Assembly (NCBI GenBank): GCA_051715345.1
Contig: JBPXJQ010000040.1
Location: 92 to 64,091 of the forward strand
Direction of reading: 5' to 3'
Length of the DNA stretch: 64,000 nucleotides
From: Candidatus Blackallbacteria bacterium
GTDB lineage: Bacteria; Cyanobacteriota; Sericytochromatia; UBA7694
Under the pieces are notes generated by a model. It was not told the origin of the DNA. It searched no databases and saw nothing but the letters and a program-made list of their open reading frames with translations. Of the stretch, positions 5,912-26,939 are shown one piece after another; the first letter of the stretch is position 1, and every line of letters starts with the position of its first letter. Both the position numbers and the translations under genes were made by a program.

Positions 5912-6005
5912 ACTGCAGACTCATCCTTTACATCTTGTATTATTTTTTTAAGAGAACAAATCGCAAATAAATATCTGACCTTTACCCGTTTCAGAGGACA
6001 CACAG

Positions 6006-6857
6006 TTAAGCAACTTTTCGCTGCTCGAACTGCTCTGGGCTGAGATAGCCCAAAGTTGAATGAAGTCTTTGCCGATTGTAAAAAACCTCAATATACTCGA
6101 AAATTGTGCTGGAGGCCTCTTTCCGAGACTCAAACACTCTATCACAACATTCCAGTTTTAGAGTGCCAAAAAACGACTCAGAACACGCATTGTCATAACA
6201 ATTCCCCTTTCTGCTCATACTTTGAGCCATTCCATAGCCCTTCAAATGCTCTTGAAACGATTGCGAAGCATATTGTGAACCACGATCTGAATGAAACAAC
6301 AGCCCCGGCTCTATACTTCTGCGTTGCAGAGCCATATCCATAGCGCTTGTGACCAGCTCTGTTTCCATTGTTTGAGACATACTCCAACCAACCACTTTTC
6401 GAGAACTCAAATCCAGTACAATAGCCAAATAAAGCCAGCCTTCACGAGTTGGAATGTACGTTATATCTCCAGCCCAGACACGGTTCATGTCCATAACTTG
6501 AAACTGGCGGTTCAAGAGATTTTCAGCCACTGGCCGTGAATGGTTTGAATCTGTTGTGCTTACTCGCTTTCGCTTCAATTTTGCTCTGAGATTGTTCTCT
6601 CGCATAATCCGAGCCACTCGATTGTGCCCCACAAAGTAGCCTTGTTGCCGCAAACTGGCTGTAATACGAGGGCTTCCGTAGCATTTACGGCCTTGGTCAT
6701 AGATTTCTTTTACCTTGGTCAGCAAAAACGAATTTTCCTGAACGCGTTTGCCAGGTAAACGTTTTAAATGACGGTAAAAGCCACTCTTACTAACTTCTAG
6801 CAATTCTGTCATGCGTTGCACCTTAAATTGCTTGGTATGGTCTGAAATCCACTTCAT
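6006..6857 (-). CDS. IS3-family transposase OrfB (DDE integrase core)
   Basis: YGSPRI, WAGDITYI, LDLSSRKVVGW, FHSDRGSQY, GNCYDNACSESFF, YNRQRLHSTLGYLSP. Confidence 0.95.
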   Translation of the reverse strand: MKWISDHTKQFKVQRMTELLEVSKSGFYRHLKRLPGKRVQENSFLLTKVKEIYDQGRKCYGSPRITASLRQQGYFVGHNRVARIMRENNLRAKLKRKRVSTTDSNHSRPVAENLLNRQFQVMDMNRVWAGDITYIPTREGWLYLAIVLDLSSRKVVGWSMSQTMETELVTSAMDMALQRRSIEPGLLFHSDRGSQYASQSFQEHLKGYGMAQSMSRKGNCYDNACSESFFGTLKLECCDRVFESRKEASSTIFEYIEVFYNRQRLHSTLGYLSPEQFEQRKVA

Positions 6858-7196
6858 ACGTACTTGTGATTCTTCTGGGAGAAGATCTCTAAGGCTTTTT
6901 TTGCCTCAGTTGTTGGCGACAGAGGAGCCTTACAACTGTGGACCGCATAGCGCTATTTCCCTATCCTCCTTAAGGTTGGCGTTTTCTCGGCGCAACCGGG
7001 CCAATTCAGCTTCTTGGGCGGTCATATTGCCATTGCCTCTAAAAGCCTCTTCTCCAGATTGTTTCTGCTCTTGGCGCCATCGGTATACCATGTTTGATGG
7101 AATCCCAAGACTTCTTGCGGCCTGGGCACCACCCACTTGCTCTGCAAGGGCCAAGGCTTCCAGTTTAAATTCTTTACTGTATTTTTTATTTGCCAT
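6854..7196 (-). pseudogene. IS3 OrfA, disrupted by a 49-bp insertion (premature stop at 6930)
   Basis: KYSKEFKLEAL HTH and ELARLRRENANLKEDREI zipper. The expected tail KKALEIFSQKNHKYV* resumes out of frame after the insert. Confidence 0.8.
6903..6951. repeat. 49-bp hairpin repeat element, copy inside IS3
   Basis: GCCT-CAGTT-GTTGGCG-ACAGAGGAG-CCTTAC-AACTG-TGGACCGCATAGC; matches copies at 26694-26858. Confidence 0.8.
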
Positions 7197-7265
7197 GTTT
7201 TCTTTACCTTCTGTTTTAAGTGTAAACCTCTCTTCTCAGGTGTCCACTTTTTTAGGTAAAGGTCA

Positions 7266-7691
7266 GTATGGCATTGACCCGATGCATGTCCCAAACGGCC
7301 TGTAACAGTTGGCGAAAGATTTCTTTCTTTTGTTCATTGTTTATTACTTTGGATTCAATTTGCGATTCGAGGTTACTGCCCTCAATATATTCCATTAAAA
7401 CCAGATAAATCTGTTCCGTCCAGCGATTAAATCCGAGAGTCTTTGCGATATGGTCTGAGGGAATTTTGAGTGTTGCTTCTCTTTCTACCCGTTGGGCCAA
7501 ATTGCCCAAATCCCCTTTCCCGCTCAAATTAATGCATTTTAGAGCGTATTTACATTTGAATGGGTATTTTCTGCCAGCCAAACCGAACCAAAAGCGCCAT
7601 TACCTAAACACTCACCCAATCGAACTTCTTTTACTGGATGGATATCGACAGGGATAAGTCCACCCTTAAAAAGATTTAGCGTTTTAGACAT
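7266..7691 (-). pseudogene. Ser/Thr protein kinase, frameshifted near 7550 and truncated by IS3
   Basis: ATG at 7691 gives ...LGNGAFGSVWLAENTHSN (Gly loop), then a stop at 7539-7541. Another frame continues KYALK...EREA...LVLMEYIEG...QLLQAVWDMHRVNAI and ends at the IS just before the HRD motif. Confidence 0.88.
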
Positions 7692-26591: not shown

Positions 26592-26939
26592 GTTGGCTCA
26601 GGCCCTGAAAAGTGAAGGCAACAGGAACCCCGCCGGTCCAGGATGGACAAAGGCGGGGTGACTCTTAAGCGCTTCTTACAGAGCCAAAGGCGAGCTTTGG
26701 CTGTTGGCGACAAGCCTTGGCTGTTGACGAGGAACGAGTTTTACAGCCAAGGACAGCATTGCTAGGAGCCTTACAGCCATAGACAGCATTGCTGTATAGA
26801 AGGCGCTTGCCTGAGCCGTTGGCGGCTTTGCCGACTTTACGGCTTAGGACAGCATAGATACTTAGCACCGCAGGTGCTGTAGCGAATGGAGCACACGATG
26901 TGCGAAATGAGCGGCCTGAACTTCAGGGCCTTGTGCCAA
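26592..26939. repeat. MITE/REP-like unit B, inverted relative to A and expanded by nested 49-50 bp hairpin elements
   Basis: Ends GTTGGCTCAGGCCCTGAA ... TTCAGGGCCTTGTGCCAA; 26880-26939 is a near reverse complement of 26337-26397; hairpin copies at 26694-26792 (outer), 26714-26762 (inner) and 26809-26858. Confidence 0.7.

Follow-up and report, generated by a model that had tools for sequence, protein, structure and literature searches.

A small hairpin repeat carried as a cassette at the frameshift site of an IS3-family insertion sequence

In a 64,000-nucleotide stretch of the genome of a Candidatus Blackallbacteria bacterium (hereafter: the window), the orfA gene of an IS3-family insertion sequence is interrupted directly before its frameshift site, and our analysis supports the view that the interrupting segment belongs to a dispersed family of small structured repeats, being one copy of a palindromic repeat that is restricted to this lineage. 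In its IS3-borne form this repeat is a cassette that is common to several IS3 lineages at exactly the same junctions. We assign a probability of about 0.7 to an account with the following elements: the repeat is specific to the lineage, the cassette came to this genome inside the arriving IS, its core was later converted, new copies are inserted by an HUH-type enzyme or by template switching, and the family spreads by hitchhiking on IS elements. In what follows, G000 denotes this genome (a 6.2-Mb assembly) and G001-G012 denote other genomes of the bacterial family. The relevant features of the window are as follows:

5976..7265, minus strand: IS3-family insertion sequence, with ends set by alignment with five related copies
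6930..7196, minus strand: orfA, cut to 88 aa by a TAA within the insert (from the open reading frames)
6895..6902, minus strand: A7G slippery site of the programmed -1 frameshift (TTTTTTT at 6896-6902 on the plus strand)
6006..6902, minus strand: frame of orfB, which extends without a stop over 299 codons from the slip site, or 283 aa when counted from the ATG at 6857
6903..6953, plus strand: hairpin repeat copy with a span of 51 bases (net 49 nt) and with the IS3-type 5' end and tail
26694..26793, plus strand: two family copies, 26714-26763 being inserted in the loop of 26694-26713 + 26764-26793; absent from the orthologous spacer of G004 and G003
26809..26859, plus strand: third family copy (51 nt), likewise missing from that spacer in G004 and G003; its junction has no more than one ambiguous T

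A blastn search of the assembly found a single full-length copy of the host IS in G000. Its terminal inverted repeats are clear in the alignment of related copies (TGACCTTTACC...GGTAAAGGTCA), and a possible 3-bp duplication, TAT (5972-5974 and 7267-7269), appears only if the ends are moved one base outward; the other copies have none. Both products carry traits of the IS3 family, OrfA matching HTH_Tnp_1 (Pfam, 5.5e-13), as expected of the HTH domain of orfA, and OrfB matching HTH_21 and rve (Pfam, 1.6e-28), as expected of the DDE core. The two genes lie in the 0 and -1 frames, as read in the relatives of the IS, and the slip motif AAAAAAAG, which corresponds to the A6G/A7G motif characteristic of IS3 elements at the orfA/orfB overlap, is kept in every aligned copy. 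The relatives of OrfB that were found by scanning genome contigs are at most 58% identical to it and come from many phyla. The IS is located near the 3' end of a short protein-kinase-like frame on the minus strand (window 7267-7691 and 5948-5975), which is itself in two overlapping pieces (7539-7691 and 7252-7581). The G+C content between 4000 and 8000 is lowered to 0.40-0.44, versus about 0.53, and this points to an island that was acquired or is decaying.

Read on the minus strand, the interrupted region comprises the end of OrfA as ...EDREI, 51 bases (6953 down to 6903), the motif AAAAAAAG (6902-6895) and then KKALEIFSQK. In relatives that lack the insert, i.e. the IS copy of G008 and ten metagenome copies, the site has the form ...GAGATTC|TAAAAAAAGCC, which encodes EDREILKKA. 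The net gain amounts to 49 nt, because two of the 51 bases replace the first two bases of the Leu codon. A preliminary description of the window, made from its letters, had recognized 49 extra nucleotides (6903-6951) with a stop immediately 5' of A7G and had deduced the arrangement EDREI-x-KKALEIFSQK, and both observations agree with the empty relatives. OrfA ends here at 88 aa, compared with 96-97 aa in the empty relatives and 114 aa in those with an in-frame cassette. As a result of the 49-nt insert, orfA and orfB of the window copy now share one frame, with only a TAA and a TGA between them, within 17 codons. This single frame and the stable hairpin at the stops could be taken to mean that ribosomes read through or hop over the two stops and that the window copy is still expressed; this reading is extremely improbable, as the 49-nt form occurs in this one copy only and is derived, and we see no reason to think that the stops are read through. 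Of the sampled words, the listed RNA runs contain a fraction of 0.05 at most.

The same site was compared in all full IS copies from the genomes of the family, and five of the six (one each in G000, G004 and G002, and two in G007) are filled, that of G008 being empty. All ten metagenome copies are empty at the slip site as well; another 10 of the 20 metagenome stretches had been dropped as unrelated sequences that merely contain the 18-mer. The cassette is present also in more distant IS3 lineages, in G010 and on contig C176 of G007, and as two fragments in G012; altogether, IS3 relatives in at least five other genomes carry it (G004, G002, G007 with three copies, G010, and G012 with the fragments). 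Its junctions are identical everywhere (ATCT|GCGC and GC|AAAAAAA), and its tail, GACCGCATMGCGCA, is seen only in IS3-borne copies: a search with the looser pattern GAYCGCATMGCGC returned 21 matches in 13 genomes, and the 13 outside IS3 are ordinary coding sequence. The standard cassette has 51 nt and adds 17 residues between the zipper region of OrfA and the slip site, closing neither frame. In G004 and G002, which hold the only fully open filled copies, it measures 51 nt net, is in frame and free of stops, and leaves an OrfA of 114 aa and an open OrfB frame. The cassette of G010 is one base short, and the copies of G007 are degenerate. Beyond CAMRS the encoded peptide is not conserved. Thus the earlier suggestion that the insert disables the IS holds for the window copy, with its TAA and its OrfA of 88 aa, but not for the cassettes of G004 and G002.

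Since the same cassette with the same junctions is present in several IS3 lineages, it probably entered this genome inside the IS. Three public contigs bear on this point. Over about 1240 bases of the backbone, the IS on contig X1 and that in the window differ by only 4 substitutions; within 6907-6953, where X1 has a cassette of the G004 type, the differences amount to 8 substitutions and 2 indels. Contig X5 crosses the IS end (7265/7266) into the flank of the window (6925-7350, 14 differences) and carries the loop and arm of the G004 type (51 nt). The 349-nt contig X4 is identical to 6567-6902 and continues with 13 bases of the empty-site form, so that it may represent an empty allele of the window's own IS type, the evidence being weak at a depth of 3.8. 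The X1 copy has one T fewer in the slip run (window 6896-6902), which places its OrfB beyond the reach of a -1 shift; the missing T may be a homopolymer error or a second route of copy decay.

The insert of the window copy has a composite character. Its 32-base core agrees at 31 of 32 positions with resident copies on contigs C8, C17 (copy C17b) and C31, but at only 25 of 33 with the IS cassette of G004; its tail, on the other hand, agrees at 13 of 14 positions with the IS type of G004 and at 10 of 14 with the resident type, and its four 5' bases are those of the IS3 cassette (4/4). The preliminary description had proposed that a free copy jumped into the IS after the latter had settled in this genome and thereby killed it, and the nearly identical core could be cited in favor of such an event, together with the broken state of the window copy and the fact that the family does make new insertions. 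However, in its 5' end, its tail and both junctions the insert follows the IS3-borne cassette rather than the resident copies, the nearly identical IS (X1) and the contig from the same locus (X5) carry the 51-nt cassette, and five other genomes (G004, G002, G007, G010 and G012) have the cassette at the same site, which makes the late jump very unlikely. From the chimeric sequence and the comparison with X1 and X5 we infer instead that the core of the insert was patch-converted from a resident copy after the IS had landed. A short templated conversion of this kind would overwrite the core of the hairpin, trim the cassette from 51 to 49 nt and put the TAA in frame; owing to the shortening and the TAA, this single-copy IS would no longer be able to make OrfA or OrfAB. 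The break in the window copy would then be a secondary change inside the cassette, rather than an effect of the cassette in general.

The cassette also appears to have a complex history among the IS elements themselves. In the tree of IS backbones the filled copies fall into two clades, and the sister group of each is an empty clade (supports 0.97-1.0). The copies of G007 are 90.6% identical to six empty metagenome copies and 77-80% identical to the group of G000, G004 and G002; except for a nested piece of 17 nt, however, they have the same cassette as G004. The two filled clades beside empty ones, together with the possible empty allele on X4, indicate that the cassette was gained, lost or transferred more than once. 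Simple excision was considered as the origin of the empty copies and rejected, as removal of the cassette would not restore their TTA/CTA Leu codon. Either the cassette has been copied repeatedly into empty IS3 relatives at the same place, or filled and empty copies convert each other. The IS3 copies on contigs C32 and C45 of G007 (loci L014 and L011) share three related inserts of 17-18 nt, of the type TACCCAWA.GGGCA, one within the hairpin cassette and two in orfB. These mini-inserts were rejected as a second repeat family, since the pattern is hit no more than 6 times in G007 and 5 of these hits fall within the two IS copies.

As to the family to which the cassette belongs, the core motif proposed in the preliminary description has 3 matches in the window, versus 0.05 expected, and none of 100 shuffles reached 3. 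A profile built from the four copies found 10 places in G000 at E<=0.001 (nhmmer). A structural alignment of 14 copies from four genomes was then used to build a covariance model, R1. The shape common to the 14 copies, whose unit length is about 45-53 nt, consists of a variable stem of 10 bp, an inner stem of 3 bp in its loop, and a 3' tail with a mini-hairpin of 3 bp; the loop carries the conserved GTTGGCGA and CCTTAC around the inner stem. In the alignment 90.5% of the cells are paired, compared with 22-46% in slid controls, 9 of the 16 pairs change on both sides, and the covariation score was reached by none of 500 shuffles, so that the claim of arms that differ in sequence and stay complementary is confirmed on 14 copies. 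Stem cells with G.T (7) and A.C (5) are about equally frequent; hence this comparison favors neither strand, and neither RNA nor DNA, as the carrier of the structure. The fold energies of the hairpins are lower on the plus strand.

Model R1 has at least 13 hits in G000, which bears out the expectation of further genomic copies, and finds hits in 12 of the 13 genomes of the bacterial family (0-33 per genome), these counts being lower bounds, as scoring was limited to 150 candidates per genome and contig ends cut into many of the hits' surroundings. With the same limit of 150 candidates per genome, none of 34 genomes from other families of the class has a hit. In Rfam there was no match at the gathering score in the window, and none even at E<=1 in 26600-26900 and 6800-7050. 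Our literature search, which is no proof of novelty, found no description of 45-53-nt hairpin repeats that lack target-site duplications and lie inside IS3 or TnpB genes.

The three copies reported 20 kb away from the IS are real and occupy 26714-26763, 26694-26713 + 26764-26793, and 26809-26859. The orthologous spacer upstream of the urocanase gene in G004 and G003 is without all three of them. The nested pair sits in the loop of yet another intergenic palindromic repeat, which is uninterrupted in G004 and G003 and has the form AAGCGCTTCT..CAGAGCC..GCGATGCTTAGAAGGCGCTT. This palindrome is one of at least two other families of small intergenic repeats that surround the hairpin copies (window 26620-26700 and 26793-26880; contigs C53, C63, C17 and C37 of G000), the second being a G+C-rich, terminator-like hairpin (CCCCGCC...GGCGGGG). 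Downstream of genes, these small repeats are combined into mosaic arrays.

Members of the family are insertion-polymorphic, produce no target duplication, and nest in each other's loops as well as in other repeats. The orthologous IS605 tnpB gene of four genomes of the same genus contains three different family insertions, none of which is found in the other orthologs: G000 has one of 50 nt, G003 one of 51 nt, which is reversed in orientation, and G004 and G005 have one of net 45 nt in common. Similarly, the IS3 copy of G002 has an extra family copy of 45 nt in orfB, absent from the other 14 aligned copies, and its frame is open through both inserts. Filled and empty sites thus exist and copies nest in one another; the insert is not native to all copies of the IS, and further copies and empty sites are found, as the preliminary description had anticipated. 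Seven junction pairs (the IS3 site, three in tnpB, the nested copy and two intergenic ones) were inspected, and they have neither a target duplication, with at most one ambiguous base, nor a common 4-5-nt target or other flank motif 5' of the insertion. This bears on the possibility that a DDE transposase, e.g. that of a nearby IS3, IS630 or IS66, moves the repeat in trans as a classical MITE. The copies are indeed often found in or near such elements, but the absence of a duplication from all 7 pairs and the lack of terminal inverted repeats resembling IS ends, in a unit that is a stem-loop with an asymmetric tail, argue against DDE-type mobilization and make this explanation highly improbable.

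Family copies are often located inside transposase genes, and most of the insertions that were measured keep the reading frame. Among the 30 best model hits, which are no random sample, 13 are in or beside transposase genes (five in TnpB, six in IS3, one in a PD-(D/E)XK transposase and one DDE-associated); within G000, 2 of 14 copies lie in such genes. Measured against the empty site, four of five insertions are multiples of three (51, 45, 51 and 45, versus 50), and the TnpB frame is open through the inserts in G003, G004, G005 and loci L139 and L167. The tnpB of G000 is broken, the only IS605 of this genome (tnpA + tnpB, contig C62, locus L123:1621-1671) holding the 50-nt copy.

Several single loci are worth describing separately. 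In G003 (C248:29737-31069, L139) there are four model hits within 1.3 kb, three of them inside one open TnpB frame of 504 aa. The peptides encoded by three independent TnpB inserts are similar (TDGDSI-like), which suggests a preference for one orientation and frame. In G001 (C76:13651-13809, L150) an IS3-like orfB contains three and a half head-to-tail copies of a 53-nt member, which indicates that the repeat can amplify in tandem too. In G011 (C49:1702-1751, L146), orfA of a different IS3-family element ends in an A8 run, and a family copy follows about 10 nt further 3'; hairpins that stimulate frameshifting usually occupy this place.

In intact IS3 copies, 1-5 nt separate the end of the hairpin from the slip site 3' of it. 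In a 70S system, -1 frameshifting is attenuated by hairpins that adjoin A6G on its upstream side (PMC6321510), and on the strength of these published results the hairpin would be predicted to lower -1 frameshifting in the intact copies. One may therefore ask if the cassette is a selected regulatory module that tunes frameshifting, with the genomic copies as its by-products or relatives. The 70S result would suit such a module, as would the fact that at least three IS3 lineages carry the cassette at one and the same position, where intact copies keep it in frame and open, and the location of the L146 copy next to the A8 run. However, the closest relatives of filled copies are empty and look intact (the L119 type has an OrfA of 97 aa and an OrfB frame of 301 codons), the peptide is not conserved past CAMRS, and the family inserts at unrelated places; we consider a selected module unlikely, though by no means as improbable as the alternatives discussed above.

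We tentatively favor a route in which a single strand is processed by an HUH-type enzyme and the product hitchhikes on IS elements. In this mechanism, primary insertion would involve a folded single strand and an HUH/Y1-type enzyme, or else template switching; most of the spread would be due to hitchhiking on IS elements, and the copies would be homogenized by patch conversion. Hitchhiking and patch conversion are the steps supported by the sequence comparisons. A Y1 gene is present in 12 of the 13 genomes of the family and does not track the number of copies: G006 has at least seven hits without a Y1 gene, and G012 has a Y1 gene without a hit. The possible partners named in the preliminary description were looked for in G000. 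There is no RAYT-like arrangement in this genome, whose only Y1 gene is an ordinary IS605 tnpA beside tnpB, without a flanking repeat pair, the only nearby family copy lying inside that tnpB; one IS110-type gene and three reverse-transcriptase genes were found, none of them beside a family copy.

A more far-reaching view, which we regard as doubtful, would make the repeat an enzyme-less 'parasite of parasites' of a kind not described before, living by preference as in-frame cassettes of about 50 nt in transposase genes (the sites in question being the IS3 slip site, IS3 orfB, TnpB and the PD-(D/E)XK transposase), carried from genome to genome by IS elements, copied into empty homologous sites and exchanging its cores by a short, homing-like templated conversion without a dedicated endonuclease, and, at the IS3 slip site, throttling the frameshifting of its host.

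The favored account has several implications. A structured repeat of very small size is able to remain within the genes of active mobile elements when it preserves their frame; IS elements can then transport it from one genome to another, and its sequence can be replaced on the spot by that of other copies. Should complete genomes confirm both the excess in transposase genes and the recurrence at the same site, the family would exemplify spreading without a transposase of its own and would offer a natural test case for the control of IS3 frameshifting by upstream hairpins. For annotation, in-frame inserts of 45-53 nt explain odd extra loops and apparent frameshifts in the IS3 and TnpB genes of this lineage.

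Several known systems resemble the family in part. Like REP and REPIN sequences, its members are short imperfect palindromes, specific to a lineage, present in tens of copies and without target duplication; most of them lie shortly after the end of a gene, interspersed with small repeats of other kinds. Evolution of REPs by gene conversion has long been proposed (PMC3116915), and a REPIN consists of two inverted REPs around a spacer and uses the RAYT gene that REPINs flank (PMC3337134). In contrast, the unit described here is a single asymmetric stem-loop with a tail, its arrays are nested or tandem and not inverted pairs, there is no repeat-flanked RAYT (Y1) gene, and the copies nest and lie inside genes.

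The palindromic elements of Rickettsia (RPE), as described in a review (PMC10969869), lie in frame inside ORFs and are translated as extra peptide segments. They share with our family the occurrence of in-frame palindromic repeats within genes. They differ in being about 150 bp long and in residing in metabolic genes of Rickettsia, unlike the units of 45-53 nt in transposase genes that we find.

Nesting of very small repeats within each other is a feature in common with the small dispersed repeats (SDR) of Nostocaceae, which Elhai et al. (2008) reportedly described as very small, nesting and mobilized in an unknown manner. The SDR unit is 21-27 nt long. The repeat studied here is twice as long and has a two-hairpin shape, and its genome has no Photo_RC gene and no excess of HIP1. 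According to PMC5861425, SDRs occur in Nostocaceae only.

The use of a hairpin and the lack of target duplication also recall HUH transposition and the PATE elements derived from IS200/IS605. Unlike PATEs, however, the family has no fixed tetra- or pentanucleotide 5' of its insertions, the 5' flanks being different at every site, and its hairpin is unlike the one at the right end of the resident IS605, whose tnpB is itself interrupted by the repeat.

Finally, a stable hairpin that ends 1-5 nt 5' of a slippery heptamer is reminiscent of the upstream attenuators of -1 frameshifting, the known examples of which (PMC3639245, PMC4705660 and PMC6321510) are viral or engineered; here, in contrast, the hairpin is a copy of a repeat family in an IS3 element, with a predicted attenuating effect. 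What is most unusual about the family is that it lives inside transposase genes, recurs at a single IS3 site and has its core exchanged.
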